A program made the translations under genes and the position numbers. A model generated the notes under the pieces. It was given only the letters and a program-made list of their open reading frames with translations. It did no database searches and was not told the DNA's origin. A stretch of 64,000 nucleotides of DNA from an uncultured Bacilli bacterium (lineage in GTDB: Bacteria > Bacillota_I > Bacilli_A > RF39 > UBA660): contig CAKORJ010000001.1 in assembly GCA_934101575.1 (NCBI GenBank), positions 474,519-538,518 of the forward strand. Reading direction: 5' to 3'. Below, one piece after another: positions 2,924 to 43,201 of this stretch (positions are counted from its first letter, which is position 1; every line of letters starts with the position of its first letter).

Positions 2924-3676
2924 TTATAGGTTTATATCTTTATGTCTTAATATATCTCTTATTTCATCATTTTTTTCTTGTCTTACATTGTTTAAATAAC
3001 TATTTTGGAAGTCTTCATCGGAGAATTCATGTATTTGATCATCGTTTTTAAAGTCGTGCATTTCATTTCCTATACTATTTCTTTCTTTATCTTTGCTATC
3101 TAGTTTTCCTGCTATTTTTCTTACTGCTAAGTTCATAAGAAGGATTCCTATCCAGACAAAGAATATACACATACTTGCTTGTAATAGAATCATTAGTGTT
3201 TCGTTTGAATAGACTTCTTCGACTTCATAGAAACTTATATTTTCTCCTTTTGCTACGTCTAGTATTAGTACTGAAAAGAACCATATTATTATAAAACAAA
3301 AGACGTTACATATTTTTGTTACTTTTGAATAGTGCGGATTTATAAAGTTTATTGCCAGTAGTAATAATGATATTAACAGCATGGATAGATATACTACTAG
3401 ATTAGGAAAATACATTGCTGTGAAGAATTTTTCTACTACACTGTCGTTCATTGAAAAAGCATAAGTTCCATATCTTGCAAATACTAAGATCATTAGAAGT
3501 GCATAACAGATAATTGAGGCATATCTTGGTGCTTTACTTTTTACTTTTACATTTATAATTAATATTACTATTGTTAGAATTATGATTACAAGAAGGGTTA
3601 TGAAAAATGATGATGAGAATATTGTATCAAAAATTGTTTTTATTCTATCCCAAAGTGAGAACTCTGCCATTTTCAT
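2924..3676 (-). CDS. Hypothetical polytopic membrane protein
   Basis: 250 aa with about 6 hydrophobic segments and an acidic/charged C-terminal tail. GGAGGG SD upstream. No recognisable family. Confidence 0.55.
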   Translation of the reverse strand: MKMAEFSLWDRIKTIFDTIFSSSFFITLLVIIILTIVILIINVKVKSKAPRYASIICYALLMILVFARYGTYAFSMNDSVVEKFFTAMYFPNLVVYLSMLLISLLLLAINFINPHYSKVTKICNVFCFIIIWFFSVLILDVAKGENISFYEVEEVYSNETLMILLQASMCIFFVWIGILLMNLAVRKIAGKLDSKDKERNSIGNEMHDFKNDDQIHEFSDEDFQNSYLNNVRQEKNDEIRDILRHKDINL

Positions 3677-3701: not shown

Positions 3702-4352
3702 TTATAGACTTTTTTCTTCTGTTAATTCAAATATCAATACTAAATAATAAGTTCTATAGTCTGGTCTAGCACAGGTTATTAGAGTTAATTGTTTTTTTTG
3801 ACTGTGTCTGTATACGTCTACTCCATCGCCTTGTCTATCTTTATATTTTTTTACTAATTGATATGTGTATCTTTTTTCTTTATATGTTACATATGCTAGG
3901 TCTCCTAATGATAGGTTATCTAGTCTTGTAAAGTATCCATTCCATCCTGTTCCACTGTGTCCTGCTAGGATAAAGTTACTGTATTTATCATCTGGATATG
4001 TTGATCCTTCCATAATGGCTATATTTTGATCTACATTATTTCCAGAAGTTCCATATTTTACAAATCCCCTATTTAAATTTATTTTTGATATGTTTAATCT
4101 TCCTATATAGTTATAAGTTATTTTTTTCTTTTTTACTCTTCCTGATGTATCTCCAGTTGGTATTGTTTTATTACTTTCTGTAGGTGTTACTGCTTCGACA
4201 TACTCTGGTTCTTGTGATAATAAAATACTCATTTTTTCATAGACATTTGCTCTTTTTTCCATGAAATAATTGTGTCCTACTATAGCTATACCACAAATTA
4301 TTATGATAAGAGCAATTGTTACAAATTGTTTATTATTAAGTCCATCACTCAT
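3702..4352 (-). CDS. Sortase-family transpeptidase (membrane anchored)
   Basis: N-terminal TM segment. Catalytic His context ILAGHSG, catalytic Cys in the TLITC motif (QLTLITCARP), and a downstream Arg. Met5 is preferred as start (GAGGTG just upstream); the track ORF begins at 4364. Confidence 0.8.
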   Translation of the reverse strand: MSDGLNNKQFVTIALIIIICGIAIVGHNYFMEKRANVYEKMSILLSQEPEYVEAVTPTESNKTIPTGDTSGRVKKKKITYNYIGRLNISKINLNRGFVKYGTSGNNVDQNIAIMEGSTYPDDKYSNFILAGHSGTGWNGYFTRLDNLSLGDLAYVTYKEKRYTYQLVKKYKDRQGDGVDVYRHSQKKQLTLITCARPDYRTYYLVLIFELTEEKSL

Positions 4353-4428
4353 AATACACCTCATTATAGTAATATTATAACTATATTTTTTTAAAATCTC
4401 AATATTTTTGTAGAAAAAAAGATAGAAA

Positions 4429-5559
4429 CTATTTGCTGGTTTTGATAATTTTGTTTTTGTTTCTATCGTAAACTGTTGATGTTGTTATATATAAATTATT
4501 TTCTTTTGTTATTTTTTCTTCTTTTCCATCTATGTAAATAATGTGTACTTCTTTTATTGAGTTATCTTGTGTATCATATTTTATTTGTTTTACTTTTTTA
4601 TCTGCGCTTTTTAATGCTGTTGGTATTTCTTTTGACTTTATTACGTTACTATTTATTTCTATTTTATATAATTCATCCTCTTTATCTACTATATATATTG
4701 TATATAAGTAATCTGTTTTTTTATTTAGTTTTTTATATGTTAGACTGGTTATTTCTGTATCTTTTTTTAACTTTAGGACTGAGAACATTTCTTTTACTAC
4801 TATTTCTTTTTTTAGTTCATCTCTTATAGTTTTTTCTTTATTATATCCTAACATGATGTTATCATCAAATGTTTGGTAGACAATAGTTTTTTTACATATA
4901 TCATTTTCCTCTAATGCGCATATATAATTAAAATATGGTCTTTCTTCATTTAAGCTTTTATGTGTTTCATATTTATTCTTGCTATATGTTATATATTCTA
5001 AAGTTTTATTCTCTTTAGCTATTATAAAGTTTGTTTTAAAATTTTTTGTTTCATACACGTATACTTTTTCTTTATCATAGGTTGTTTTATATACATCTTG
5101 GACGTTTTGTCCTATTTCTTGGAATTTGTTATTATCTTTGCTATTTATATTTATTCTGGCATAGTATAAACTATTTTGTTTAGAGACTGCTGCGAGTTCA
5201 TATGTTTCATCATCTATTTTACTATAGTATACATTTAGTACTTCTTTTGGAAGATCTGTTACTGTTTTGTTTAATTCTTCTTTATTTTTTATTTTTATGT
5301 GAAGAGTATTTGTTTTATCTAAATACATATAGATAGTTTTATTCTCATCACTAGAGTTTTTTATATTATCTGCTTTTTTTATGTAGTCATTGTTAAATAA
5401 ATAATCTATGTTGTAGTAATTATCTACTTTTGTTTCGATTTCTTTGTTTTCTTTTTTTGATTTATAACTTTTATATGTACAGTATCCTATTGTTAAAAAT
5501 GATGTTAATATTAATAAGATACATGTTATTTCTAGGACTTTTTTCTTTTTTAAGTTCAT
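4429..5559 (-). CDS. Hypothetical N-terminally anchored extracytoplasmic protein
   Basis: 376 aa. One N-terminal TM (VLEITCILLILTSFLTIGYC), then a K/N/E/Y-rich soluble region. No family recognised. Confidence 0.5.
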   Translation of the reverse strand: MNLKKKKVLEITCILLILTSFLTIGYCTYKSYKSKKENKEIETKVDNYYNIDYLFNNDYIKKADNIKNSSDENKTIYMYLDKTNTLHIKIKNKEELNKTVTDLPKEVLNVYYSKIDDETYELAAVSKQNSLYYARININSKDNNKFQEIGQNVQDVYKTTYDKEKVYVYETKNFKTNFIIAKENKTLEYITYSKNKYETHKSLNEERPYFNYICALEENDICKKTIVYQTFDDNIMLGYNKEKTIRDELKKEIVVKEMFSVLKLKKDTEITSLTYKKLNKKTDYLYTIYIVDKEDELYKIEINSNVIKSKEIPTALKSADKKVKQIKYDTQDNSIKEVHIIYIDGKEEKITKENNLYITTSTVYDRNKNKIIKTSK

Positions 5560-5609: not shown

Positions 5610-5930
5610 TTAATCACTTACTACGGAGGATGCTCCACTAAAGATTAGTTTTATAGCATCATCTAAGGCATTTTCTAGTTTTAATGATACTTTATAAATA
5701 TTTGATGTTACTTTATTTTGATAGTTTTTATCTTCATATAGTACATATTTTTTTATATCAATGCTTTTTCCTTTACTGATGTCTTGTTCAAAGTTTTCTA
5801 TTTGCTCTTCTGTTAAAATTTTTGCTTTTTCATTTCTATTTTTATAGTATCCTTGAGACTCAGCTAATAAAAGGATTATAAAGAAACAAAACAGTGAAAG
5901 GAATATACAGAGGAATATTTTATTTTTCAT
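5610..5930 (-). CDS. Small membrane-anchored protein downstream of spoIIP (YqxA/DUF3679-like by position)
   Basis: 106 aa with an N-terminal TM. It overlaps the spoIIP stop by 11 nt, suggesting translational coupling. Bacillus has yqxA in the same position after spoIIP. The assignment rests on position and size only. Confidence 0.4.
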   Translation of the reverse strand: MKNKIFLCIFLSLFCFFIILLLAESQGYYKNRNEKAKILTEEQIENFEQDISKGKSIDIKKYVLYEDKNYQNKVTSNIYKVSLKLENALDDAIKLIFSGASSVVSD

Positions 5931-6732
5931 ATGAGACTCCTATATAATAGTTTATGGCTTCGGATAATGCTTTGGTTGTGTTATAAACTTCTTCTAGGGT
6001 GTTTTCTGGCCCGCCTATTTCAACAAGGAACATATTTTGGCTGTAGCCTTGGTTAAAGTTACTATGTTTTTGATAATAAGTACTACGTACTAAGTTTTTA
6101 TAGTGTTTATTTAGATAACTTTCCATTATTTTTAGATTATTTACATTTTTTTGATAGTTTTTATTTTTAGTTCCTACTAGAAACATCATAGTTGCATATT
6201 TTTTACCTTTTATGGTTGTAACTGATGGTGGGCCTGTCACTGAATCTCTATGTACATCGAAGAAATACTTTATTGTTTTATGTCTTTTTTTTGTATCTTT
6301 TAAATATTCAAAACTTACTGTATAGGTATTTGGATAATCTAGTCCTCTTTTATTTACTTCTTTTGTTATACTTCTTGTTTCTAAAATAGAGCTCACTCCT
6401 AAAGTTTTTAATTCTTCTTTTAATATGTTACTTGCTGTTTTTACAGTCGGTGCTATATTATAAGGAGTGCTTCCATATTCTTCTGTTTCATGAGTATTAT
6501 ATATATAAACAAGTGGTGATTTAGTTTTCTCTTGTTTTTTTTCTGTAGTTTTTTTTATGGGTTTTTCTATGGAGTTACTTAGTTTTTGATTTTTTACTGT
6601 ATTTATTACTACAGACTGCTTATTATCTTTTAAGACAAAATCTATGATGTTGATATCTTTAAAAATCTTGTTTATATAGATTAAGGATATTATTAATAAA
6701 AAAAGACAAAAGAGATTCTTTCCTTTACTCAT
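5920..6732 (-). CDS. spoIIP: Stage II sporulation protein P (engulfment peptidoglycan hydrolase)
   Basis: 270 aa with an N-terminal anchor. SpoIIP signature blocks VYIYNTHETEEY and YFFDVHRDS are present. It sits directly downstream of gpr, as in Bacillus (rpsT-gpr-spoIIP neighbourhood). Confidence 0.8.
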   Translation of the reverse strand: MSKGKNLFCLFLLIISLIYINKIFKDINIIDFVLKDNKQSVVINTVKNQKLSNSIEKPIKKTTEKKQEKTKSPLVYIYNTHETEEYGSTPYNIAPTVKTASNILKEELKTLGVSSILETRSITKEVNKRGLDYPNTYTVSFEYLKDTKKRHKTIKYFFDVHRDSVTGPPSVTTIKGKKYATMMFLVGTKNKNYQKNVNNLKIMESYLNKHYKNLVRSTYYQKHSNFNQGYSQNMFLVEIGGPENTLEEVYNTTKALSEAINYYIGVSYEK

Positions 6733-14693: not shown

Positions 14694-15260
14694 CTATTTA
14701 GTAAAGTATCTACATAGGCTATTTGAATTCTCATAGTCATTTATTACTTCTTCACCGTTTACTTTTAATATTATACATAATAGTTCTTCTTTAGATGGTT
14801 CTATAGCTCCATTATTTTTTTGACATGATTTTATTATTTTATTATCTTTTACTGTTGTAGTTACTAGACATGTTCCATCTGCAATTTGTTTTTCTTCTGT
14901 TTGGCTTTCATTTGTATAGTTTGTTTTGTTTAGCAAATCTCCTTTTATTTTTAGGTTAAACTCACTGCCATTTATATCTTTTAGGCTTAGCCTTTGACCA
15001 TTGAAGCTTAATTCTTCAAAGTATGAGTTGTAGGCTTTATTATTATCATTACTTATTGTTATATTTTTTTCATACTTTCCCATTTGTCCTTGTCTATATG
15101 TATCGTATGCTGCTTCTATAGTTGAATGAAGCTGGATTAGTTCTTTGTCTCTTACTTCTTTTCTATATCTTGATACTCCGACTATTGCTATTGTTGATAG
15201 TATTCCTAATATTACTATTATTGCCATTAGTTCTACTATTGTAAATCCTTTATTCTTCAT
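14694..15260 (-). CDS. Prepilin-type N-terminal cleavage/methylation domain protein (type IV pilin or pseudopilin)
   Basis: 188 aa. MKNKG|FTIVELMAIIVILGILSTIAIV is a textbook class III signal: G-F-T-x-x-E followed by a hydrophobic helix. It lies 12 nt upstream of mutL on the same strand. Confidence 0.8.
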   Translation of the reverse strand: MKNKGFTIVELMAIIVILGILSTIAIVGVSRYRKEVRDKELIQLHSTIEAAYDTYRQGQMGKYEKNITISNDNNKAYNSYFEELSFNGQRLSLKDINGSEFNLKIKGDLLNKTNYTNESQTEEKQIADGTCLVTTTVKDNKIIKSCQKNNGAIEPSKEELLCIILKVNGEEVINDYENSNSLCRYFTK

Positions 15261-15313: not shown

Positions 15314-16012
15314 CTAGTAATTTATTTCTCCTTTTCTTATAAATTCTCTTAATATTTTAGTTATTGCTCTTTTTTCTATTCTTGATACATAACTTCTTGA
15401 TATATTTAGGTCTTTTGCTATTTCTTTTTGCGTTTTTTCTTCTTCGTTGTTTAGTCCATATCTTTTTATTAGTATTTCTTTTTCTCTTGGTGTTAGTTTT
15501 TTGATATATTCTTTTAAATCTTTTATGTTGTCTTTTAGATGCATTTTTTCTATATAGTCTGGTTTTGGTGTTTTTAAAACATCTAGTATTGTTATATCGT
15601 TTCCTTCTTTATCATATCCTATTGAATCATCTAAGGATATGTTATTGTTATTTTTTTTGTTACTTCTAAAGAACATTAATATTTCATTTTCTATGCATTT
15701 GGCACAGTATGTTGTTATTTTTGTTCCATGTTTTTTGGAATATGAATCTATTCCTTTTATTAATCCTATGGTTCCTATGCTTATTAAATCATCATTATCT
15801 ATATTAGTGTTTTCATATTTTTTTGTTATATGGGCAACTAATCTTAAATTATGTTCTATTAGTTTATCTCTGGCTGTTTTATCTTTTTTTAGTAATAGAT
15901 TTATATATTTTTCTTCTTCTTCTTTTGATAATGGTTCTTTAAATACGTTATTTGAATATGATGTTTTGAATAACATTAGTGTTTTTAGTATTGAAAGAAT
16001 ACTTGTTAACAT
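15314..16012 (-). CDS. sigK: Sporulation sigma factor SigK (pro-sigma-K), uninterrupted
   Basis: 232 aa with a pro-sequence-like hydrophobic N-terminus. NNVFKEPLSKEEEEKY, LIEHNLRLVAHITKKYENT, DLISIGTIGLIKGIDSY, CIENEILMFFR, ISRSYVSRIEKRA are near-collinear with B. subtilis SigK. Confidence 0.8.
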   Translation of the reverse strand: MLTSILSILKTLMLFKTSYSNNVFKEPLSKEEEEKYINLLLKKDKTARDKLIEHNLRLVAHITKKYENTNIDNDDLISIGTIGLIKGIDSYSKKHGTKITTYCAKCIENEILMFFRSNKKNNNNISLDDSIGYDKEGNDITILDVLKTPKPDYIEKMHLKDNIKDLKEYIKKLTPREKEILIKRYGLNNEEEKTQKEIAKDLNISRSYVSRIEKRAITKILREFIRKGEINY

Positions 16013-21610: not shown

Positions 21611-21626
21611 AAAAGGACTATTTGTC

Positions 21627-22265
21627 CTAGTGTTCATATAATCCATGTATTTTTTGTCTTGTTGTATCATCTATGTCATTTAATGTCCATACATTGTCTA
21701 CTTTTGTTAGTTTAAAATCTATTGTGTATTTTACTCTATCTTTTGCATCTTTTAGTTTGCCTAGTCTGTACTCTACAAATTTTGAATCTGAGTTTGTTCC
21801 TGTTACTGCGTCTTTGGCGTCTTTGGTTGCATCTTTTGCTCCTTCAATGATATCTTCTGTTGCATTTTTTGCATCATCCACTATGCCATTTCCTGTTACT
21901 GATTTAAATTCATCTGGATTCTTATTGTAGTAATCTTCGGCATCTTTGTTTATTTTGTAGTAATCATAGACTTCTATTTCTGCTGTTACAGTTGCAGTAT
22001 CTCCATCGATAGTTTCATCTTTTATTTCGTATGACATGTCTTTGTATTGTTTTTTTATTATGTCTTGATATGTTTCTTTTTGTGTGTCGTCCATTAATGA
22101 ATCTGTATCTACCATGTCTTTTAATTGATTTAGTACTGTTTCATCTTGATTTTTATAACTATCTAGAAATTTTTCTACTTTTTTAGTTGGAGTATTATCC
22201 ATGGTGCAACCGCTCAATAATACAATAGCCATAATACATGAAAAACATAATAATATTTTTTTCAT
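21627..22265 (-). CDS. Putative lipoprotein (acidic), function unknown
   Basis: Lipobox LLSGC after the MKKILLCFSCIMAIV signal. Start placed at the ATG 8 nt after GGGAGGA (the track ORF is 5 codons longer). Last gene of the 28862..21627 minus-strand string. Confidence 0.6.
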   Translation of the reverse strand: MKKILLCFSCIMAIVLLSGCTMDNTPTKKVEKFLDSYKNQDETVLNQLKDMVDTDSLMDDTQKETYQDIIKKQYKDMSYEIKDETIDGDTATVTAEIEVYDYYKINKDAEDYYNKNPDEFKSVTGNGIVDDAKNATEDIIEGAKDATKDAKDAVTGTNSDSKFVEYRLGKLKDAKDRVKYTIDFKLTKVDNVWTLNDIDDTTRQKIHGLYEH

Positions 22266-22312
22266 AATAAATCCTCCCATTTCTATTATGAGAGGATTAT
22301 TATTTTTTTATA

Positions 22313-23086
22313 CTAGATTTTGTTTAAACTATTTTTTTTGTTTTTTAAAACTATTATGATTATTATTGCTACAACTGAAAGGAGAATGAATACTGATGCT
22401 ATAATGATGCCTGCATATGGATTTTGATCTTTTGTTTCTGGTGTTTGTTGATCTTCTGTTTGATCTGTTGTGTTGTCTGATGAATCATCAGCTTCAGGAT
22501 CTTCACCAACTATTTCATCCATTGATTTGTTTTCTTTGCTTTTATTTTGGGATACGCCGAAATAAAGATTAAAACTATCATCTGTAGGGTACCAAGTATA
22601 TACATTATTATTGTGTTCTTTGGCATTATTACTTAAAACTGCTAAGTTTGTTTTTATATTTATTGTTATTGAATCTGCTCTGGAAGAACAATAGAATGGT
22701 GAAGTGGTTTTTATTGATATTTTTGCTCCATCGTTAACTATATCATATTTACTAAAACATTCTTTTATAATTCTACTACCTGCCAAAAATGATGGATTGT
22801 AATCATTTTTTAATGTAATAGTATATACTCCATTACTTTTTTTTGATGTTTTTTTGTATTTTACTTGTCTGTCTTCATCAAAGTTTATTTTATCTTTGAC
22901 TACTGATGTCATAAAATCGTAATATCCGGTTTTACTTAACTCACTTTCTTTTACTGTGTATATATTATTTTCATGAAAGTTCATATCATCATCTATTGTT
23001 AGATTGTACTCTATACTACTTGCATATGTATTAATAGTAGCTAGCATAAAGCATATTGCAAAAAAGAATATATATTTTAATTTCAT
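22313..23086 (-). CDS. Bitopic surface protein: signal peptide + ~190-aa domain + acidic/Thr-rich stalk + C-terminal TM anchor; paralogue of 23096..23878
   Basis: 257 aa. Signal ..TINTYASS, stalk EDPEADDSSDNTTDQTEDQQTPETKDQ, C-terminal TM IIIASVFILLSVVAIIIIIVL followed by KNKK. Shares blocks with its neighbour (N[IL]TID.., NN[VI]YTW). Confidence 0.55.
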   Translation of the reverse strand: MKLKYIFFFAICFMLATINTYASSIEYNLTIDDDMNFHENNIYTVKESELSKTGYYDFMTSVVKDKINFDEDRQVKYKKTSKKSNGVYTITLKNDYNPSFLAGSRIIKECFSKYDIVNDGAKISIKTTSPFYCSSRADSITINIKTNLAVLSNNAKEHNNNVYTWYPTDDSFNLYFGVSQNKSKENKSMDEIVGEDPEADDSSDNTTDQTEDQQTPETKDQNPYAGIIIASVFILLSVVAIIIIIVLKNKKNSLNKI

Positions 23087-23095
23087 AATTACCTC

Positions 23096-23878
23096 CTATA
23101 GTTCTGATGCCTTATGTTTTTTTCTTATGAAAATAATTGTTGTTATGATTGCACCTGATAGTATTACAATTACTAATATTATACTTAATACGTTGTTTTT
23201 TTTACTTTCAGGTTCTTTTATATTTTTATTATCATTTGTTTTATTAGAATCATCTTGGTTGGATTTTTCTGTTTCATTATATTTTTGTCCATAATCTATT
23301 GTTATATTTATACCTTTGCTTTGAGAATTTTTATTATTAAACTCCCATGTATATATGTTATCATCATTATTTATTTTATCTGCATTATTATAAATAACTT
23401 TGTATGGAGTTTTTACATTTACTGAAAAATTATTAAATTCGCATGTAAGGCCTTTACTTGTTGCAAAAGTAATAGCATTTGAATTATCTTCTGACTCTGC
23501 TATGTTATAGTATTCAAAACAATTTCTGATTGCTGATGATTTTGTATGTTCTGATAATGGAAAGTTTCCTGTGACTATAACTTGTCTTTTTGTGTCATCT
23601 GCTCTTGAATTATAATAATCTATTCCAGATTCTTTTTCTCCAGTTGTAGAATATGGATTTTTTAAATTTGCATCATAATATAATGGTGTAGGATATGTTG
23701 CATTTTCTTTTATTTTACTGTAATCTGAACTACTACCATATATTATATATTCTTCTTTTATATTGTTTTTATCTATAGTAATATTAGCTGTTGCTGTGCA
23801 TCCTGTCATAAGGAAAACTGCTATTACTAATAATATGATTTTTTTCAAACTATCACCTATCCTTTTGAAATGATCCAA
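23096..23878 (-). CDS. Bitopic lipoprotein-like surface protein with C-terminal TM anchor; paralogue of 22313..23086
   Basis: 260 aa. Lipobox LMTGC, a domain of about 190 aa, a K/N/D-rich linker, and a C-terminal TM (LSIILVIVILSGAIITTIIFI RKKHK). Its start overlaps the upstream hydrolase gene by 22 nt. Confidence 0.55.
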   Translation of the reverse strand: MDHFKRIGDSLKKIILLVIAVFLMTGCTATANITIDKNNIKEEYIIYGSSSDYSKIKENATYPTPLYYDANLKNPYSTTGEKESGIDYYNSRADDTKRQVIVTGNFPLSEHTKSSAIRNCFEYYNIAESEDNSNAITFATSKGLTCEFNNFSVNVKTPYKVIYNNADKINNDDNIYTWEFNNKNSQSKGINITIDYGQKYNETEKSNQDDSNKTNDNKNIKEPESKKNNVLSIILVIVILSGAIITTIIFIRKKHKASEL

Positions 23879-26376
23879 TATTGTTTTGATGCTGGTACTA
23901 CAACATCTTTGAATGAATACATTTTTGATGGATTATTTTTATTTGGATCTTGAACGAATACCTCACCATCTTTATGTGATGTTAGAACTATATAATGTCC
24001 TTTGCTTGTAAATGGTTTTTTATCTGTAGATGCAATAACTAATTTTTTACCGCTATTTAAAGCTATTAGAACTTCTTCTTGTCCTTTTTTATCATTTGTT
24101 ACTTGTTGTACTGTTAAACCATATTTTTTCCCTGCTGCTGCAAAGAATGAGTAAGCTGTTCCTTGTCCTTGAACTCTATGTCCATTATCGCATGAGAATT
24201 TTGCAAGTTCTACTGGATCATGTTCTTCGCCTAATAATGATGATGTAACTATGGCCATAGCAGTTGGTCCACATCCACTTGTGGCTATTGTATTACTTCC
24301 AGAACAATATGCATTTTTATAGTCATTTTGATAATATGGATAAATTTTACCTGAATAACCATCTCCGCCAACTGTACATGTTCCTCCAGTTACTCCTGTT
24401 ATTTCTATTCCATCAGCATAGAAATATTTTAGAATTTCATCGAATTTTTTTCCTTCGTCTTGCATTTGTCTTGCTACATATTGACTCATTCCATGAGCAT
24501 GACCTGCTCCATTTAAACCACCACTATATGCTGCTCTGCTATGTGGGGACTTTACTGTTATTTTATGTTTTTCTTTCGAAGGAACTTTTGTATATGTTAC
24601 TGTACATGTTGTTCCACTACAACTTGCATCTGGACAGTCCTCGTCATGTATACAAAATGCGTCATACTGAGCTGAGAAAACTTTTCTGTTGTATAGCATT
24701 ACTGAACCTGCTGTTTCTTGAGCTGCTTTTTTTGCTCTTTCATTTGCTTTTTGATATACTTGAGCTGATTGACTATTTCCAATTGATTTTGAACAGTTAC
24801 TAGTTGAGTTTACTGCATAAGTTCTTGCTGCTATAGCTTGAGCTTTCATTGCTTCTATATTATCTGGATCTTGGGAATTTTTATATGAATTTTCTGCTGA
24901 TACTACTCCGGCTATATAATCTTCTAAACTTATTGTACCCGTTCCACTTACTGTTATTCCATTTGGACAGTAATTTCCTGTTTCTCCTGTTGAAATAGAA
25001 CTACTTGTGTCGCAACATTTTTCTTCCCCAGATGTACTACTATCATTTTGATAATCTGTAGCATCATTTGCAGCATTGGCACTGTCTCCAGCTGGCTCTC
25101 CATCCCATTTACTACCACAACTTGTTTTAAATGCTTGATAGTTCATGAAATAATCTACATAGCCATATACAAGAGTGCCATTTACTTTCATACCGAAATG
25201 TAAATGATTTCCTGTTGATCTTCCAGAGCTTGCTACATTTCCTATTAGTTGTCCTTTACCGACTTTGTCACCTTTTTTTACTTTGATTGAATTTTTTACC
25301 ATGTGGTAGTAGTGAGTTTCTATTACTCCACCATGTTTTATTGCTACGAAATTTCCTCTTGATTCACCACCGCAATTGGTACTACTTGCTACGGTTTCAT
25401 TATCTTTACAACCATCATTAACTTCTGTAACAACACCAGCTTGCGCTGCATATATTGGAGTTCCTCTTCCTATTGCTAAGTCGATTCCTCTATGGGTACT
25501 TCCCCACCTTGGACCTGGTTTTGATGTTATTGTATAGTTAAATTTTTTCCCTAATGGATTTTGCATTTTACATAAAAAATCTGTTTCAGAGGCTGACCCT
25601 GAATAATCTGCTCCATTATATGTACTTCCAGATGTAGTACTACCACCATCATCACTACAAATTGAAGCTATTACTCCAGCGCTTACTCCACCAAATAATG
25701 CAGCTATTACAACAAATGCTAGTAAGACTAATACTAATATTCCAGTTACAATTACTGCTACTTTTATTTTTATTGTTATAGGTAAGGCAGCAAATGACTG
25801 TTTAATTTTTGAGGTAGCCATTTGTTTTCCAGCGCTTTGTTCTTTTTCGCCACCTTTATCTGTTGAATTTTTACTTCCTAATCCTAATTTTGATTTTATT
25901 CCTTGTCCAACTCTATTAAGTGGATTTAATTTTGAACCAAGTTTTTTCTTTGTCTCTGCATCTTTGTTATTGTTTTGGTTTTTTTTGGTGTTATTTTGGT
26001 TATTTTCCTTATTATTTTGCCCATTATTTTTTTCTTTATTGTTTTCATCGTTTTTACCATTTTTATTGTTTTGGTTCTTTTTTTTGTCTCCTGGGCCACC
26101 CTTTTTTCCTATATTCTTATCTGGTTTGTTTTGACCATTCATTAATTTATTCTTAATTTTTTCGCCTACCCCTGTGGCTAGACTTTTTTTATTGGGATTT
26201 CCTACATTTCCTTTTACACCTTGAACGAGTCCTTTTCCAAAGTCTGTTACTCCATTGGCAATGCTCCCCATAGATGATTGTCCGCTTGCTCTCGGAAATT
26301 GTCCATTTCCTGCGGGTTCTTGAGGCTGAGTTTCAGAACCAACATTAATATCTTCTTGCTCATTATTTTCGTTCAT
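23857..26376 (-). CDS. Membrane-anchored triple peptidoglycan hydrolase: M23/LytM + SpoIID/LytB + papain-like C39-type domain
   Basis: 839 aa. Residues 1-195 form a K/N/G-rich low-complexity tail, with a TM at about aa 196-238. M23 has intact HxxxD (STHRGIDL) and HxH (GNHLHFG). SpoIID blocks: LEDYIAGVVSAE, KAQAIAARTYAV, SAQVYQ, GHAHGMSQYVARQM, EILKYFY. The C-terminal domain has SGCGPTAMAIV (Cys), KGHYIVL (His), and VQDPN (Asp). GGTGATG SD. Confidence 0.85.
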   Translation of the reverse strand: MNENNEQEDINVGSETQPQEPAGNGQFPRASGQSSMGSIANGVTDFGKGLVQGVKGNVGNPNKKSLATGVGEKIKNKLMNGQNKPDKNIGKKGGPGDKKKNQNNKNGKNDENNKEKNNGQNNKENNQNNTKKNQNNNKDAETKKKLGSKLNPLNRVGQGIKSKLGLGSKNSTDKGGEKEQSAGKQMATSKIKQSFAALPITIKIKVAVIVTGILVLVLLAFVVIAALFGGVSAGVIASICSDDGGSTTSGSTYNGADYSGSASETDFLCKMQNPLGKKFNYTITSKPGPRWGSTHRGIDLAIGRGTPIYAAQAGVVTEVNDGCKDNETVASSTNCGGESRGNFVAIKHGGVIETHYYHMVKNSIKVKKGDKVGKGQLIGNVASSGRSTGNHLHFGMKVNGTLVYGYVDYFMNYQAFKTSCGSKWDGEPAGDSANAANDATDYQNDSSTSGEEKCCDTSSSISTGETGNYCPNGITVSGTGTISLEDYIAGVVSAENSYKNSQDPDNIEAMKAQAIAARTYAVNSTSNCSKSIGNSQSAQVYQKANERAKKAAQETAGSVMLYNRKVFSAQYDAFCIHDEDCPDASCSGTTCTVTYTKVPSKEKHKITVKSPHSRAAYSGGLNGAGHAHGMSQYVARQMQDEGKKFDEILKYFYADGIEITGVTGGTCTVGGDGYSGKIYPYYQNDYKNAYCSGSNTIATSGCGPTAMAIVTSSLLGEEHDPVELAKFSCDNGHRVQGQGTAYSFFAAAGKKYGLTVQQVTNDKKGQEEVLIALNSGKKLVIASTDKKPFTSKGHYIVLTSHKDGEVFVQDPNKNNPSKMYSFKDVVVPASKQYWIISKG

Positions 26377-26456
26377 TTACATCACCACATTTCTTAAGTA
26401 TCTTCTATATTACTATATCATAAAAAACGACAAAAAAAAAGGAAAACTTAGTTTCC

Positions 26457-28862
26457 TTAAATCATTTTATACTTTCTATAAATTATATAACTTCCTCCAC
26501 CAATTAGTAATAATCCTCCAACTATTGTTGAAATAGCTACTACACTTCCTGTGTTTGGAACACTGATTTTTTTAGGACTATTGTATATTTTTAAGTGGTC
26601 TAGGTCAGTATCATCTTTTTCTTTTGATTTTTCTAATTTATATAAGTTTGATTTTGCACTTATTAATTTGATATTACCATCTGTTAATACTCTGAATTTA
26701 ACTTCTGTTTTTAATGTTTGATATCCTTTTGGTGCTAGTGTTTCAGTTAGAGTATAATCACCAATTGGAATTGCAAAGTCTTTTGGAGTTCCATCAGATT
26801 TATATTTTAGGAATGTTTCTCCTTTTTCATTTTTTATTTCTATTTTTGCACCTTTTATTTCTTTTTCGTTAGTAATATCAACTTTGCTTATTTTCATATC
26901 GATTGGTTTATTTGTTAGTGATATTGTTACTCTTTTTTGATATGTTTCATATTCAAATTCTTTTAATGCATCAGGTATTACTGTGTTATCACCATCTATA
27001 TATTTTTGTAATAGTGCTTTATCATTTTCATCTACTTTGTTATCTTTATTAACATCCGATGCGTAGAATTGAATCTTTGTTTCTTCTATTTTTTTAGCTA
27101 TAATGTCTTCGATTACTTTTATATCCTCTGCATCAATCTTTCCATCATTTGTTGGATCTCCTAAACGATATTTTTCATTTTCTATCATGATTTCGTCTTT
27201 TTCTGGAACAGCATTTGTTCCTTGTGATTTATATTTTAAAGCATCATTATCTTTATTTAATGTAAATTCATATGGCTCTTCTAAAATTTTATACCATGAA
27301 TCTGCTTTTACTTCGACTAATATATAATCTCCATAAGGGATGTCTACAAATTCAGCAATTCCTCTTTCATCTGTTTTTACGTTTTTAACTACATTACCAT
27401 GAATATCTACTGCTGGTTCTTTTTTAGGATTATTCTTTAATAATTGGAATTCTACTCCTGGAATTACTTTCTTTGTTTCAACATCTGTTTTAAGTATTGT
27501 TACATTACCATATGGTATGTTATAAACAGCTTGTACTACTTTTTCGTGATCTTCTAATATTTGTGCTCCTAGTGGGGTTCCAGAAGTGTTTTCTTTCCAA
27601 TCAGCTGTTACTTTTACTGGAATACAATTATTTTTTGCTCCTAGTTTTTCTAATTGATCACTATCTAATGCATAACCTTCAAGAATTGGGTCTATTTCTT
27701 TTACATAATATGTTCTTGATTCACCAAGTTTTAGTGGATAGTATAAATCATTCCATTCTATTATACCATTTTTGTCAGATTTTTTTGCTGGGAGTTCTTT
27801 TCCAAGATAATTTACAGCTTTTTTACTACATGTATCATCACTAAATATTCCAAATGTTGCACCTTTCATATTTTTACCTGTATACTTATCAATTTTATGA
27901 ATCTTAACTGTTCCTTTACCAATTTTTTCATATTGATATGGTGCATAACCTACTACTGTTTTATATTTAGGTACAAAATATTTTGTAGTTTGTATTCTTG
28001 TTCCTTTTCTTGTGTAAACTGTTCCGCCATCACTATATGTTCTTGACATGCTTATTGGTGTAGTAACACTGTCATCTTTTGAAGTGATTGTTAACGTATT
28101 TCCACTTTGTGTTGCTGTTACACTTGTTGGGTTAGAACCTAATTTAAATTTAGAAAATACTGCCTTTGTATCGGTCATACTTCCTGAAAAGTTTCTATTT
28201 GCCTCGCTATATTTTAGTATTGGTTTATCAGTAACTTTTTGTGCTGCTTCAACTGATGCATAGGCGAAACTAGGTATAACTTCATGATTTCTCATTTCTG
28301 TTAATAAATTGTATGCTAAGTCAACTACTGCCGATGCACTGCTTCCTGCAACTAAACTTGATATTGTTGATTTGCTAACTGAACTTTCAGATAGAATATT
28401 AAATCCACCATCAGCTTGTTGTTTTGTAGCCATCCATACAATTAACTGTGTAGCTAAAAAGTTATTGTTACATGTTGGTGTTGAAGTATTTGCTTGATAT
28501 CCGTATGCTAATGCTCTTGCAACCAAGTCACTATTAACATTTGCTGCGGATGCTATATAACTAGGATTATCACTATTGTTTAAATAATGTGCACTTCTTT
28601 CAACACAATATACTAAGTGTCCACTATTAGATACATAACCAGTAAAGTGGTCTGATGGGGTATTGTTGTTTTCTTCTTTCCACTCGTTCCAAACACTATT
28701 TATTATAAAGTATTGATGTTGGATACTACCGCTTGCTGGTCTTATTACACTTTTATCGCATTGTTTAACTGAGATTTCAGCTGCATCTACCTTTCCTATC
28801 CCTATTATACTTACTAACGCCATAAGTAATAACGCCATAAATATATTTATTTTTTTTGACAT
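26457..28862 (-). CDS. Sortase-anchored adhesin: thioester (TQxA-type) domain + Cna-B/SpaA-like repeats + internal dockerin-like module + VPNTG sorting signal
   Basis: Start placed at Met7 of the track ORF (AGGAG 7 nt upstream), followed by a signal peptide. Thioester motifs are LVYCVERSAH (Cys) and LATQLIVW (Gln), with ALAYGYQ between them. Three Ig-like repeats: GTVKIHKIDKYTGKNMKGATFGIF, GNVTILKTDVETKKVIPGVEFQLL, MKISKVDITNEKEIKGAKIEIKNEKG. C-terminus is VPNTG + hydrophobic stretch + RKYK. Confidence 0.8.
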   Translation of the reverse strand: MSKKINIFMALLLMALVSIIGIGKVDAAEISVKQCDKSVIRPASGSIQHQYFIINSVWNEWKEENNNTPSDHFTGYVSNSGHLVYCVERSAHYLNNSDNPSYIASAANVNSDLVARALAYGYQANTSTPTCNNNFLATQLIVWMATKQQADGGFNILSESSVSKSTISSLVAGSSASAVVDLAYNLLTEMRNHEVIPSFAYASVEAAQKVTDKPILKYSEANRNFSGSMTDTKAVFSKFKLGSNPTSVTATQSGNTLTITSKDDSVTTPISMSRTYSDGGTVYTRKGTRIQTTKYFVPKYKTVVGYAPYQYEKIGKGTVKIHKIDKYTGKNMKGATFGIFSDDTCSKKAVNYLGKELPAKKSDKNGIIEWNDLYYPLKLGESRTYYVKEIDPILEGYALDSDQLEKLGAKNNCIPVKVTADWKENTSGTPLGAQILEDHEKVVQAVYNIPYGNVTILKTDVETKKVIPGVEFQLLKNNPKKEPAVDIHGNVVKNVKTDERGIAEFVDIPYGDYILVEVKADSWYKILEEPYEFTLNKDNDALKYKSQGTNAVPEKDEIMIENEKYRLGDPTNDGKIDAEDIKVIEDIIAKKIEETKIQFYASDVNKDNKVDENDKALLQKYIDGDNTVIPDALKEFEYETYQKRVTISLTNKPIDMKISKVDITNEKEIKGAKIEIKNEKGETFLKYKSDGTPKDFAIPIGDYTLTETLAPKGYQTLKTEVKFRVLTDGNIKLISAKSNLYKLEKSKEKDDTDLDHLKIYNSPKKISVPNTGSVVAISTIVGGLLLIGGGSYIIYRKYKMI
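26547..26561 (-). other. Cell-wall sorting motif VPNTG of the adhesin
   Basis: GTT CCA AAC ACA GGA on the minus strand, followed by 23 mostly hydrophobic residues and RKYKMI. Confidence 0.7.
26991..27161 (-). other. Dockerin-like double EF-hand module inside the adhesin
   Basis: GDPTNDGKIDAEDIKVIEDIIAKK and SDVNKDNKVDENDKALLQKYIDG. These are two D-x-N-x-D-G/N-K-[IV]-D-x-x-D calcium loops, each followed by a helix, spaced as in type I dockerins. Confidence 0.6.
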
Positions 28863-28940
28863 TATATCACTCCTATTCATATAATCTAGACTAATTATAA
28901 CTTATTATTTTTAGAATAGCAATGATTTTTTTGATTATTT

Positions 28941-29573
28941 TTATTTTTGTTTTTCTTTTGACAAATGGAGTATTTTGAATATTTTTATATGTTTATCATT
29001 AAAATCTTTCAAGCTGTTTGTTAATGTTTTATATATATATTCTATGTTGTTATTTTCTTTGTTTGTAAACTCATAATATATATATATTAGTTTTTCTATT
29101 TCATTATTTTTGTACAGCTCTTTTATTTCTTTTTCTAGGGTTTCTTTTATTATATTTTCTTTTCTTGTTAAATTATTTTGTTTTTCTCTTCTTTTTTCTA
29201 ATATTTCATAACTAAATGTTATCATGTTTATGTTTTCTGATATTTCTAGGGTTTCTTCTTCTTCATCTAATAATAGTCTTGATACTTTTTCTACTTTGTT
29301 TTGTTTTATTAGGAGTCCTATTACTATTAACCCATCTGTTAATAAGCATATACTTCCAGCATTTTTTTCTCCATTCATTTCATACTTTGGTATTTTGTTT
29401 GTAAAGTTTGTGTCTAATAATACTTTATTTTGTGCTATGTCTTTTATTATTTTATTTGGTACTTTAAAGAGTATTACTTTTTTTACATATTTTATTTTAT
29501 CTTTTTCTTCCCATTCAAAATGTTCTATTAAATTGTTATTAAAGTTTAGCAATATATCATAAATATAAGTCAT
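28941..29573 (-). CDS. UPF0736/YjbA-like (DUF3603) cytoplasmic protein
   Basis: MTYIYDILLNFNNNLIEHFEWEEKDKIKYVKKVILFKV parallels Bacillus YjbA ([26 protein letters not shown]..; recollection). Start placed at Met22 of the track ORF (GAGGGA 6 nt upstream). Confidence 0.45.
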   Translation of the reverse strand: MTYIYDILLNFNNNLIEHFEWEEKDKIKYVKKVILFKVPNKIIKDIAQNKVLLDTNFTNKIPKYEMNGEKNAGSICLLTDGLIVIGLLIKQNKVEKVSRLLLDEEEETLEISENINMITFSYEILEKRREKQNNLTRKENIIKETLEKEIKELYKNNEIEKLIYIYYEFTNKENNNIEYIYKTLTNSLKDFNDKHIKIFKILHLSKEKQK

Positions 29574-29667
29574 ATTTGATCCCTCAAAAATAGTATATAC
29601 AATATTTTTAATTTTAATCTGTTTAATTTTTGACAAAAATAGTATATAATTAATTGTGGTGATTATA

Positions 29668-41176: not shown

Positions 41177-43201
41177 TTAGGGTGTTATTATGAGACGAGA
41201 GGAAATACTAGCTACCGATGCGCCTCCGCTATAATTGGAATAAAATATACCAGAACTTGCACCATTTCGGTAATAACCTCCACGAAGAAACCAGGAATTA
41301 TTATGGTTGGCAAGATTGGAGCCATCACTATACCAGCCACTCGAACTACTTTTATATACCTCTTTTATTCCATCTCCTAACTTGCTTCTTATTCTAGTGG
41401 TATTGCTTGTGCTAAAACTGTATTTATCATAATATTTGTTATTTGGATAATCTATTCCAGTATATGATGTGTAATTGCCTGAATCATAAATTATTCCTTT
41501 ATATCCTGAATTTCTAGATGAACTATAACCACTCATCATTGTTGTTCCATCATTACTTACTATGTTTGCCATCGTATATTCATAGGATCCTCCGTTCACA
41601 TCATATACTCCGTATATATTATGTGTTGTTGAAGCACTTGGCCCATCTCTACTTTCTCCTATTAATGTTTTACTTTCTTTTATTGTTGGACTATCTAATA
41701 CTTTTATATTTTTTATATATCCTGTATCTGTTCCTTTTGTCCCTGAACTATCTTTTCTATATGTAAATGTTAATTCATATGTTCCTTTATCTAGTTTTTT
41801 TGATACATTATTATAGATTAATGCACTTTCTGTTGTTCCTAAATCTGTTCCTCCTATTTTTGTACTTGTTCCTGTATCTGATAAAGTTGTTCCATCTTTT
41901 GTTATTGTATAATATAAATAATCATAACTTGCACTTTCACTTGATACACTCCAGTCAAATGATATATATGTATTATTAGTTGGTGCTGTAAAACTAAATT
42001 TTAGATTAGTTGTTGTAGAATCTTTTCCTTGATTTGAACTTTTATATAAACCATCTGAAGAAGTCCACGGATATGTTGTATCATTTGTTACTGTTGCTGC
42101 TATTGCAGTTCCCCCAGTCATTGTTGTTGTATTTTTTTTAGTTTCATTATATTTATATGTTCCTTCTGCAGAACTTGATGTGCTTGAGGTTCCTCCACTT
42201 CTTCCTGTATAATAACTAGAACTATTATTTACATTTACTTCTTTACATGTACCATCTGTACATGTTCCATATTTTGAGTGTGATAGGTACGCTACTGCTC
42301 CCCATTCACTATTCTTTATCATATGTGTATCGGTAGTTGTGTTTAAACCATACTGATTACCACTATTTTTCATATTCATTATATTTGTTTCAAATGTACT
42401 TACACTTTGTTCTCTTACACTACTTAAATTTGGTTTTGTTGTTATATTACTTACTGTTCCTGTAAGTTCAAACTTTCCTATCCAGAATCCCTTTATTTCT
42501 TCATTTCCAAATGTAAATGCTGGATGGGTATATGTTTTATTATTACATGTATCATCAGTACATGTTGCATTAGTACTTTTTAATTTACATGTTTCTGAGG
42601 CTGCTCCATCTGTTCCACTTATTGAATCTTGACATGTTATTTCTCCAGTTGTTCCTGTACCATTTTCCCATGTTATGTCTATTTGTTGCGGATTGCTAGT
42701 CTTTGTTCCATCTGCATTATAATTCCATACTTTATATTTATATCTTGGTATCCAAACCTCCATTGTTAATATATCATCCATTGGTATTTCTGTTCCTACA
42801 CTTGCTGATAAGTATTTACTTCTATTAGTGCTACTTACTGTTACACTATTTGCCCATATTTTCTTATCATAATTATACCATCTATATTTTTCATTTGAAT
42901 TTTTTTTGTCAGCTTTCTTCCATGTTTCTGTATTTTCATCATAATATACTGGTATCATTCCTTCGTCTAGTTCTGGTTCATTTGCTCCACTTGTGTCTAC
43001 ATTATTTGCTTTCACTATTAATTCTATTGTTTTAGTTCCTAATTCAGTGTCTGAAAATATTGCATATGATGAGTTTATTTTATATGATATGCATCCTACT
43101 GTTAATAGGAATACTATACATAATATTGATAACTTTATTTTATTAAACTCTTTTATATTTTTATTTAAGAGTATATATATTGACTCCCTCGTTTGTTTCA
43201 T
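41177..43201 (-). CDS. Large secreted Thr/Ser/Asn-rich protein with SipW/TasA-type signal peptide; lectin-like folds suspected; function unknown
   Basis: 674 aa with AAGGTG SD. N-terminus is ..LSILCIVFLLTVGCISYKINSSYAIFSDTELG. Blocks include MIPVYYDE..W.KAD..YRWYNY..IWANSVTV, VWIPRYKYKVW, THPAFTFG..GFWIGKFE, and NSEWGAVAYLSHSKYG. The C-terminal WFLRGGYYRNGASSGIFY..ISSRLII is reminiscent of the end of FGE-sulfatase/C-type-lectin-like domains. A beta-sandwich-looking insert covers NLKFSFTAP..YIKNIKVLD. Confidence 0.65.
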   Translation of the reverse strand: MKQTRESIYILLNKNIKEFNKIKLSILCIVFLLTVGCISYKINSSYAIFSDTELGTKTIELIVKANNVDTSGANEPELDEGMIPVYYDENTETWKKADKKNSNEKYRWYNYDKKIWANSVTVSSTNRSKYLSASVGTEIPMDDILTMEVWIPRYKYKVWNYNADGTKTSNPQQIDITWENGTGTTGEITCQDSISGTDGAASETCKLKSTNATCTDDTCNNKTYTHPAFTFGNEEIKGFWIGKFELTGTVSNITTKPNLSSVREQSVSTFETNIMNMKNSGNQYGLNTTTDTHMIKNSEWGAVAYLSHSKYGTCTDGTCKEVNVNNSSSYYTGRSGGTSSTSSSAEGTYKYNETKKNTTTMTGGTAIAATVTNDTTYPWTSSDGLYKSSNQGKDSTTTNLKFSFTAPTNNTYISFDWSVSSESASYDYLYYTITKDGTTLSDTGTSTKIGGTDLGTTESALIYNNVSKKLDKGTYELTFTYRKDSSGTKGTDTGYIKNIKVLDSPTIKESKTLIGESRDGPSASTTHNIYGVYDVNGGSYEYTMANIVSNDGTTMMSGYSSSRNSGYKGIIYDSGNYTSYTGIDYPNNKYYDKYSFSTSNTTRIRSKLGDGIKEVYKSSSSGWYSDGSNLANHNNSWFLRGGYYRNGASSGIFYSNYSGGASVASISSRLIITP

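Follow-up and report, generated by a model that had tools for sequence, protein, structure and literature searches.

The question raised by the locus described here is what a membrane-anchored, multi-domain wall hydrolase could be doing on a chromosome where no secretion machine is seen beside it. The window analysed is a stretch of 64,000 nucleotides (64 kb) from an uncultured Bacilli bacterium (contig CAKORJ010000001.1, positions 474,519 to 538,518), and the hydrolase gene lies on its minus strand at 23857..26376. An original prediction, made from this sequence, had recognised in the product an M23 endopeptidase, a SpoIID-type domain and a C39-like cysteine peptidase, and had discussed the protein both beside the engulfment enzymes of spore formers and beside the PrgK-like proteins of conjugation systems. 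Our data indicate, with moderate confidence, that the gene belongs to a PrgK-class (VirB1-type, 'DELTA'-like) wall-breaching module which has been detached from a type IV secretion system (T4SS) and has kept a cognate lipoprotein partner. Two features had been overlooked before. Within species the ectodomain of the enzyme, a recombining, hypervariable cassette, is exchanged one domain at a time, and the three membrane proteins encoded downstream are constant partners of the hydrolase. All loci compared in this study come from metagenome assemblies (metagenomes or metagenome-assembled genomes, MAGs). Loci of the window type, without a T4SS, are called type B, and loci in which a homologue is embedded in a T4SS cluster are called type A.

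Domain architecture and active sites

The open reading frame starts with ATG and codes for 839 amino acids (aa); a plus-strand reading of the same interval was rejected because it is riddled with stop codons. Each of the three domains recognised earlier from motifs scored above its cut-off in profile searches. In Pfam, Peptidase_M23 was found at residues 294-402 (82.1 bits) and SpoIID at residues 481-562 (56.7 bits), both above the gathering score, and Peptidase_C39_2 at residues 680-812 with 51.6 bits against a cut-off of 24; in NCBIfam the SpoIID/LytB domain TIGR02669 reached 93.6 bits against 83.3. About 28 protein clusters share this tri-domain architecture. The statement that all three catalytic signatures are intact holds well: all the motifs named are present, and the catalytic residues of the three domains do not vary in the alignment made of 27 members of the family, which are 42-59% identical to the window protein. 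It should be noted here that the first row of this alignment lacks Met1, so that the true residue number is the alignment number plus one.

The zinc site of the M23 domain is made up of H295xxxD299 and H391xH393, with H348 and H358, all of them invariant, and the domain matched ShyA, LytM and lysostaphin in a profile search of the PDB. In the SpoIID domain E495, which lies in VVSAE, aligns with the region of the catalytic Glu in the SpoIID structures 4RWR and 5I1T, and the GHAHGMSQ block is at residues 625-632. The catalytic set of the C39-like domain is C702, H794 and D810. The AlphaFold2 (AF2) model of this C-terminal domain is papain-like, with a predicted local confidence (pLDDT) of 90.2, and its best PDB matches in Foldseek were the pseudomurein endoisopeptidase PeiR, the phytochelatin-synthase-like Alr0975, the C39 domains of ComA/PCAT1 and the C39-like B. 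anthracis structure 3ERV. It resembles PeiR/PeiW, 3ERV and ComA/PCAT1 in its papain-like fold and Cys-His-Asp arrangement, and PeiR is a hydrolase of peptide bonds in the cell wall; the identity to PeiR and the C39-like structures is only 14-19%, however, and no ABC transporter is fused to the domain. A bacteriocin-leader peptidase was considered and discarded, as PF03412 (Peptidase C39) scored 21.0 bits, below its cut-off of 22, and as the domain forms the C-terminus of an extracellular wall hydrolase without an ABC transporter fusion.

Ahead of the catalytic domains, the first 197 residues are rich in N (18%), K (17%) and G (14%) and carry a net charge of +17. No N-terminal signal peptide is present in the hydrolase. 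The single transmembrane (TM) segment gives a Kyte-Doolittle maximum of 3.3 at windows 206-224, and from this arrangement the tail is predicted to be cytoplasmic.

The Cys-rich insert reported within the SpoIID domain was found again, at residues 574-591. It occurs in a longer form in 15 of the 27 aligned members and in a shortened form in the other 12. It was compared with the zinc motif of C. difficile SpoIID and this identity was rejected, because that motif maps to residues ~536-548, where there is neither Cys nor His. The segment is a separate, family-specific insert, present in part of the family only. Cysteines are frequent in the ectodomain in general: residues 240-729 (window 24190-25659) contain 17, of which nine do not vary in the family; among these nine are a CC pair in the linker between M23 and SpoIID and a Cys just past the TM helix. 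For an extracellular protein of a presumed gut anaerobe this is remarkable, and the cysteines could form disulfides or bind metal.

The ectodomain as a recombining cassette

The locus L067 comes from the same species as the window and shows what may happen to the ectodomain between strains. On the two sides the sequences are 97.2% identical over 10.7 kb and 98.1% identical over 8.5 kb, whereas no blastn similarity exists across the 3.2 kb between them (window 25657-22478). One edge of this block lies immediately ahead of the TM helix, the other near residue 195 of the 257 aa protein that is second downstream. The allele of L067 codes for another M23 domain followed by a phage lysozyme and a CHAP domain, and for a single protein of the LppM family in place of the two found in the window. 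Residues 1-28 and 76-175 of the tail are essentially identical in L067, and the surface adhesin encoded upstream of the hydrolase does not vary between the two.

At the orthologous position three combinations of cassettes were met: M23 with SpoIID and C39_2, M23 with phage lysozyme and CHAP, and M23 with glucosaminidase and C39_2. All three combine an endopeptidase with a domain that cleaves glycan and with a Cys peptidase. In another species, three strains whose flanks are 97-100% (mostly 99-100%) identical carry the alleles M23-a/x/x, M23-b/x/x and M23-a/y/y, where x and y stand for SpoIID plus C39 together with the first lipoprotein. Two of the strains differ in the M23 cassette alone; another pair among the three differs in SpoIID, C39, the whole of the first lipoprotein (40% aa identity) and, in the second small gene, the ~45 codons at its start. 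Mosaic pairs were also observed within the family. One pair is 98-99% identical throughout save for the SpoIID segment (47%), a second is 97-100% identical in SpoIID and C39 with M23 at 45%, and a third is 93-95% identical in the tail and M23 with SpoIID and C39 at 34-52%. Conservation in the family is highest at two motifs, WDGExAGDSA and YDEILKFFY; the former lies in the linker between M23 and SpoIID and the latter where SpoIID joins C39, which fits recombination at conserved interdomain junctions. The relation of the window to L068 was considered as a recent transfer of the M23 cassette, and this case is weak, since 83.9% nucleotide identity is only moderately raised over the 68-78% of the flanks.

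The first lipoprotein travels with the C-terminal cassette. Over 11 loci the best correlate of its identity is that of the C39 domain (r=0.76). The second and third small proteins vary with the genomic background (r=0.8-0.9), and the SpoIID cassette is uncoupled from that background.

Two further observations concern composition and assembly. The G+C content is 0.35 over the hydrolase ectodomain (window 24001-26000) against ~0.26-0.29 in the adjoining genes, which is compatible with imported cassettes or with amino-acid composition. The contigs of L072 and L073, which carry P0011 and P0023, two family members that differ in the SpoIID cassette only, stop at most ~60 bp from the 3' end of the hydrolase gene, in keeping with assemblies breaking at a strain-variable block. 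Upstream of the hydrolase these two loci have TopA and an ABC transporter, yet another upstream context.

The conserved block and its small membrane proteins

The hydrolase gene and three small genes are kept together in the window and in L001-L009, L068, L069, L074, L075 and L080, while L067 has only two small genes. More than a dozen loci share this block, at hydrolase identities of 41-55%. In most loci vanY follows the block on the opposite strand. The genes upstream vary and may be an adhesin and bacA, or Tex/YlbD/pilin-like genes, alanine racemase, YkuD or TopA. In a scan of species-representative genomes, which rested on the two sequence patterns WDGExAGDSA and YDEILKFFY, the family was found in MAGs labelled uncultured Bacilli, Tenericutes, Mycoplasma or Erysipelotrichaceae; no genome gave two matches and none had both locus types.

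The start of the first small gene had been placed such that it overlapped the hydrolase gene by 22 nt. This overlap depends on the start codon chosen by the ORF caller. Homologues of the next gene start at MKK, which places the start here at the TTG at 23848, with GGTGA before it and 8 nt after the TAG stop of the hydrolase (23859-23857). As evidence for translational coupling the overlap was set aside, since it hinges on the choice of start codon. The wider claim of a module is supported in so far as the gene sits in a tightly packed, conserved co-directional cluster, with gaps of 8, 9 and 32 nt 3' of the hydrolase.

The AF2 model of the first downstream protein is a beta-rich pseudo-barrel with pLDDT ~90 over residues 20-190, and its sole significant PDB match is LppM of M. 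tuberculosis (2NC8, E=4.5e-6, probability 1.0), whose fold is described in PMC6151718. The two proteins share the pseudo-beta-barrel fold as well as an N-terminal lipobox combined with a C-terminal hydrophobic anchor. Dual anchoring of this kind in LppM (Rv2171) was reportedly noted by Barthe et al. 2016. The likeness has its limits, as the TM-score is only 0.41-0.57 and the identity 14%, and LppM binds mycobacterial glycolipids, with no known link to a hydrolase or T4SS. The proposal that the first protein is an analogue of VirB8/PrgL/TcpC/Orf13 was rejected, since its model is LppM-like and no VirB8-type entry was found in the top 50 fold matches.

The second protein is related to the family of the first (hhalign probability 97%, E=7.6e-11) and is kept in every type-B locus. 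The variable block takes in its ectodomain but not its C-terminal anchor. The third is 59-79% identical across relatives and essentially identical in L067. It is unrelated to the first two, and no family was found for it in searches of Pfam, NCBIfam and PHROGs. Weak Pfam signals on the small proteins (DUF5305, CD1107-like, DUF6548 and others) fall on low-complexity or TM tails and were not used.

Relation to type IV secretion

The conserved pair of hydrolase and lipoprotein occurs in another setting. In the type-A locus L016 the order is TrbL_4/VirB6-like, p105 (105 aa), p184 (184 aa), VirB4-like ATPase, hydrolase, lipoprotein and VirD4 (L016:4102-14054), and the same order is repeated in L011, L012, L014, L015, L017 and L018. 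In L070 and L071, whose contigs start within VirB4, the order is VirB4, hydrolase, lipoprotein(s) and VirD4. The hydrolase of L016 consists of an N/Q-rich tail, a TM segment, SpoIID and CHAP; its tail is a low-complexity one of the same kind as in the window, its SpoIID domain is 44% identical to that of the window, and both have a similar Cys-rich segment. The first downstream protein of the window and the lipoprotein of the T4SS clusters are one family (hhalign 98.9%, E=2e-17; tblastn E=1e-9 to 1e-13). The PrgK-like design proposed at first thus gains from the finding that SpoIID-bearing homologues lie between VirB4 and VirD4 in related Bacilli MAGs and are followed by the same lipoprotein family. 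Adjacency to VirB4/VirD4 is confined to distant homologues, namely those nine type-A loci, and no T4SS gene was found in the 64-kb window or within +/-10 kb of the locus in close relatives.

The type-A cluster, compact and of Gram-positive type, seems to be a T4SS that has become fixed in the chromosome of a gut Bacilli lineage. Core genes flank it in L017, with infB-rbfA upstream and, by gene sizes matching those of L016, rmuC-rnr downstream, and no relaxase or integrase was seen within +/-10 kb of the type-A clusters. The type-A VirB4 has more than 7,000 database matches; the top 120 are at least 86% identical, nearly all 594 aa long, and come from MAGs labelled 'Acholeplasma sp.', 'Ca. Faecisoma' or 'Bacilli', some on contigs of more than 1 Mb. 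A comparable system is known in Patescibacteria, reduced-genome, host-associated bacteria with a chromosomal, relaxase-poor T4SS and with peptidase and lysozyme genes just downstream of virB4 (PMC12102498). The type-A system is like it in being monoderm-type and chromosomal and in having wall hydrolases beside virB4; the window differs in that it has no T4SS and that its lineage is Bacilli.

The closest known parallel in layout is PrgK of the E. faecalis plasmid pCF10, which has an intracellular N-domain, a TM helix (254-274), a LytM domain, a glycan-cleaving domain and CHAP, and which binds the product of the next gene, PrgL (PMC11323569). As far as topology can be read from the sequence, the window protein shares with PrgK and with TraG of pIP501 the succession of N-terminal intracellular region, single TM segment, M23/LytM, glycan-cleaving domain and Cys peptidase, and its putative partner is likewise encoded by the next gene; the lysozyme and CHAP of the L067 allele come even nearer to PrgK. 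Several differences exist. The M23 site is intact here whereas the LytM domain of PrgK is degenerate, a SpoIID-type domain takes the place of SLT/muramidase for glycan cleavage, and the peptidase is C39_2/PeiR-like in place of a CHAP domain that shows no measurable activity. The partner has an LppM fold, whereas that of PrgK is VirB8-like, and the locus is chromosomal, syntenic and hypervariable within species, with no T4SS genes nearby.

Genomic setting

The window is part of the core chromosome of a low-GC (~27%) spore-former. It contains the sporulation genes SpoIIP and Gpr, the wall and division genes for two PBP5-type carboxypeptidases, VanY, an M15 peptidase, FtsQ and FtsW/RodA, and among others RelA, MutL, TruB, PheT and one sortase. 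SpoIIP (5920-6732) lies 17.1 kb from the hydrolase, in agreement with the distance of 17 kb given earlier. The module lies among the wall genes uppP/bacA, vanY, a dacA-like PBP5 gene and murG-murB-ftsQ. Along the minus strand the order is the 231 aa protein, adhesin, hydrolase, 250 aa lipoprotein, 257 aa paralogue, 217 aa lipoprotein and a terminator-like hairpin. The coordinates are collected in Table 1.

Table 1. Features of the hydrolase locus in window coordinates
Feature	Position	Strand	Basis
Tri-domain, membrane-anchored peptidoglycan hydrolase	23857..26376	-	ORF and translation, Pfam, family of ~28 clusters, invariant catalytic residues
N/K/G-rich low-complexity N-terminal tail, residues 1-197	25786..26376	-	composition
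Single transmembrane segment, ~residues 203-238	25663..25770	-	only hydrophobic stretch
Peptidase_M23 domain, intact zinc site	25171..25497	-	Pfam, PDB profile matches, invariant residues
SpoIID/LytB-type lytic transglycosylase domain, residues 468-660, catalytic E495	24397..24975	-	Pfam, NCBIfam, structure alignment
Cys-rich segment inside SpoIID domain: CIHDEDCPDASCSGTTC = residues 575-591; FCIHDEDCPDASCSGTTC = 574-591	24604..24654	-	sequence
C39_2-type papain-like cysteine peptidase domain, residues 661-839	23860..24396	-	Pfam, AF2 model, Foldseek
First downstream protein: lipobox signal, LppM-fold ectodomain, C-terminal TM anchor; 250 aa from TTG 23848	23096..23848	-	homologue-supported start, AF2 model
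Second downstream protein, 257 aa: signal peptide, paralogous LppM-type ectodomain, C-terminal TM anchor	22313..23086	-	hhalign
Third downstream protein, 217 aa lipoprotein, best-conserved module member	21627..22280	-	identity among relatives
Hypervariable allelic block: hydrolase TM and whole ectodomain, first small protein, ectodomain of second	22478..25657	.	blastn, window vs L067
Terminator-like hairpin and T-run, directly 3' of last gene of block	21614..21628	-	consensus match only
Weak hairpin (GGAAAC-TAA-GTTTTCC) and T9, between adhesin and hydrolase	26432..26456	-	read from sequence
Surface adhesin, frequent upstream neighbour: TED, three SpaA domains, type I dockerin, VPNTG (LPXTG-type) anchor	26457..28880	-	Pfam, NCBIfam, C-terminus
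231 aa protein, frequent upstream neighbour, no signal peptide; module membership uncertain	28941..29636	-	no Pfam/NCBIfam match

A functional link of the hydrolase to the adhesin had been proposed, and this stands in part. The adhesin adjoins the hydrolase in L002, L004, L067, L068 (as two tandem paralogues) and L075, but it is absent in L005, L069, L003, L007 and L009, all of which keep the hydrolase and the small-protein block, and the gap of 80 nt between the two genes holds a hairpin followed by T9. The adhesin is a frequent but non-obligatory neighbour. The hairpin falls under the G+C-pair threshold of the terminator scanner and could be a partial terminator. A promoter scan gave 51 sites against 56.6 expected in this AT-rich DNA; the consensus scan separates nothing from chance. 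The type I dockerin of the adhesin (residues 574-628) lies between SpaA domains and is conserved in the adhesins of relatives; no cohesin partner for it was seen in the window. The sortase gene at 3702-4364 (-), flanked by genes without a Pfam match at 2924-3676 (250 aa) and 4429-5559 (376 aa), is a candidate for anchoring the VPNTG adhesin encoded 22 kb away. The 231 aa protein matches phrog_7257, a phage family of unknown function (E=2.3e-6); it is conserved beside BacA in several loci and stands directly beside the hydrolase in the adhesin-less L005 and L069.

Some other genes of the window may be mentioned. A 188 aa protein with a prepilin-type N-methylation motif (14694-15260, -) is encoded beside a 232 aa sigma-70-family factor (15314-16012, -), which is 81-89% identical across these lineages, and in L007 another N_methyl protein lies directly upstream of the hydrolase. 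The products of 56915-59449 (-) and 60047-61669 (-) carry the ALK/LTK-type glycine-rich domain PF12810 (128 and 68 bits), which is unusual for a bacterium; both have a galactose-binding-like domain and one also Laminin_G_3. An ORF of 674 aa at 41177-43201 (-), between a PBP5-type carboxypeptidase gene and pheT, has no Pfam match at E<=0.001.

Mode of action and rival explanations

The three domains suggest how such an enzyme could work. The intact M23 domain is predicted from its identity to cut peptide cross-links, and the papain-like C39_2 domain, whose nearest structure is a cell-wall isopeptidase, would cut peptide and amide bonds of the stem or cross-link. The characterised SpoIID enzymes require a peptide-stripped (denuded) glycan (PMC6221140), so that the SpoIID-type lytic transglycosylase would be expected to act on the glycan strands after the peptidases have stripped the peptides. 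In this manner one tethered polypeptide could breach the thick wall locally, right over the point where it is anchored in the membrane. The pairing of hydrolase and LppM-fold lipoprotein would be ancient, and it is also found inside the chromosomal T4SS clusters of sister gut Bacilli; in the lineage of the window the pair stands apart from genes for T4SS ATPases and channel, the lipoprotein is duplicated and a third lipoprotein is added. The first lipoprotein probably serves the C-terminal peptidase cassette as its cognate partner outside the cell, whether as a docking partner, like PrgL for PrgK, or as a regulator or inhibitor, like the inhibitor and immunity proteins of papain-like peptidases.

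Several points weigh against this interpretation. With no T4SS gene around the type-B loci examined, the enzyme has no visible machine to serve. With the T4SS-embedded hydrolases the protein shares sequence only in the SpoIID domain, itself a mobile cassette, and the tails are alike in composition only. Common descent with these hydrolases rests largely on the lipoprotein family and the gene order. The likeness to PrgK is one of layout, not of direct sequence comparison, and the tblastn search of plasmids matched M23 only. Since the downstream protein is not VirB8/PrgL-like in fold, the analogy with PrgK and PrgL is functional only. As neighbours, the first lipoprotein and the C-terminal cassette could co-vary through simple linkage, and the data are drawn from metagenome assemblies alone.

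The allelic replacement could have another cause, namely a kin-discriminating or antagonistic effector-immunity system in which the tethered hydrolase, brought near by contact between cells or by the adhesin, attacks the walls of neighbours and the co-varying LppM-fold lipoprotein protects cells of the same allele, by immunity or exclusion. A conserved N-terminal part, a hypervariable enzymatic part and a co-segregating next gene are the hallmark of polymorphic toxin/immunity loci, and the several sharply bounded swaps within species are suggestive of diversifying or frequency-dependent selection. General surface-antigen variation does not explain them, as the adhesin is invariant between the window and L067. 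The structural neighbours of the C39 domain include papain-like toxin/immunity pairs as well as complexes of staphopain with staphostatin. A precedent exists in the exclusion protein YddJ of ICEBs1, a lipoprotein encoded near the T4SS hydrolase gene cwlT. YddJ specifically recognises a surface-exposed T4SS component, its target being ConG/VirB6 (10.1101/2021.01.25.428195). As in YddJ and in polymorphic toxin-immunity pairs, a small envelope protein appears here to co-vary in its specificity with the surface-exposed part of a neighbour, but it has no relation to YddJ in sequence or fold, and its apparent partner is the C-terminal cassette of the hydrolase and not VirB6. Reach is a difficulty: the enzyme is anchored in the membrane with ~600 residues outside the cell, neither a delivery system nor a secretion signal is recognisable, and even fully extended PrgK is estimated to reach only about the middle of the wall (PMC11323569). 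No T5SS, T6SS, T7SS, LXG, Rhs or contact-dependent inhibition (CDI) domains or neighbouring genes were found, and no orphan cassettes or immunity arrays were seen downstream. In addition, the genes downstream stay as they are when the M23 cassette is swapped, and adjacency could explain the co-variation that is seen. We regard effector and immunity as an improbable explanation, even if the foremost of the alternatives. Ranked next, and likewise improbable, is allelic recognition that derives from a T4SS and no longer depends on one, in which the swappable tethered hydrolase and the co-inherited LppM-fold lipoprotein would mediate allele-specific attack, protection or exclusion. An ordinary autolysin follows as a doubtful third: a housekeeping enzyme for growth or daughter-cell separation in a small-genome lineage, regulated through its tail and membrane partners, for which any cassette suffices. 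The fixed chromosomal site among bacA/uppP, vanY, a PBP5-type carboxypeptidase, an M15 peptidase and murG-murB-ftsQ would suit such an enzyme, as would its single occurrence per genome in the species-representative scan, its strongly conserved catalytic residues and the tolerance of isofunctional domain replacement. Replacement by unrelated cassettes between strains with 97-100% identical flanks is, however, abnormal for housekeeping autolysins, the homologues in sister lineages are dedicated T4SS components, and the co-segregating lipoprotein would be left unexplained.

The framing around SpoIIQ and SpoIID in the original prediction is not supported. Had the protein been a fused DMP/SpoIIQ-like engulfment hydrolase, or a lytic enzyme of the mother cell or cortex, its setting would be apt, for the organism carries SpoIIP and Gpr and one relative has a YlbD coat-like gene. 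The protein has in common with the SpoIID/SpoIIP/SpoIIQ enzymes a SpoIID/LytB domain with the catalytic Glu and a GHxxGMSQ block, and an M23 domain as in SpoIIQ; the logic of peptide removal before SpoIID action is also shared, as the characterised SpoIID needs a peptide-stripping partner and the fused peptidases could supply it (PMC6221140). But the NCBIfam SpoIID equivalog TIGR02870 has its cut-off at 234.75 bits and gave 69.7, the SpoIIQ equivalog has its own at 250 and gave 24, and the same-species allele of L067 lacks SpoIID and C39 altogether, with phage lysozyme and CHAP in their place. On these two grounds orthology with the sporulation proteins was rejected. The SpoIID cassette is moreover uncoupled from the genomic background, the nearest SpoIID-domain relatives outside the family are T4SS hydrolases, and SpoIIP is encoded separately in the window; unlike the engulfment hydrolases the protein is multi-domain with a tail of ~200 residues, its SpoIID domain is dispensable within the species, and its Cys-rich segment is not the C. 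difficile zinc motif. A role in sporulation is very unlikely. Least credible of all, and scarcely to be expected, is an integrated conjugative element (ICE) or prophage in the window. It would account for the PrgK-like design, for M23 matches in phage endolysin and tape-measure families, and for an upstream adhesin like those of the pCF10 operon, where surface adhesins are encoded upstream of prgK. Yet, as had been stated earlier, conjugation genes are absent: no T4SS gene, VirB4, VirD4, VirB6, relaxase, integrase or phage structural gene was found within the window. The synteny with core genes is kept across species at the hydrolase identities given above, and the rise in G+C over the gene is modest (0.35 against ~0.27). 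In a tblastn search of 72,556 plasmids only the M23 domain was matched, at no more than 29% query coverage, and viral contigs and PHROGs also match the hydrolase through this domain alone. The detached wall-breaching module with its lipoprotein partner is the interpretation that we prefer.

Significance

In this PrgK-type enzyme a SpoIID-type transglycosylase and a PeiR-like cysteine peptidase, by their predicted roles, stand beside an M23 domain with an intact active site. A full-text search of the literature found no paper that counts a SpoIID-type lytic transglycosylase among the T4SS (VirB1-type) wall hydrolases; SpoIID-like domains are mentioned only in a few polyvalent proteins of phages and conjugative elements (PMC5512222). 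Because the LytM domain of PrgK is degenerate and its CHAP domain has no measurable activity, a family with all active sites intact may be a better model than PrgK for the cutting of a thick wall. The locus is also a clear natural case of isofunctional, domain-by-domain cassette exchange in one gene, with breakpoints near conserved junctions, and the co-segregating lipoprotein suggests an undescribed specificity between enzyme and partner, be it regulator, inhibitor, immunity or exclusion protein. The uncultured low-GC Bacilli that carry it are common in the gut metagenomes of animals and humans, and for them a strain-variable surface module is a candidate determinant of cell-cell interaction, as is the highly conserved chromosomal T4SS of the sister lineage. 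If the reading as allelic recognition were true, these bacteria would have a new contact-dependent module of kin discrimination or antagonism built from a VirB1-type enzyme.

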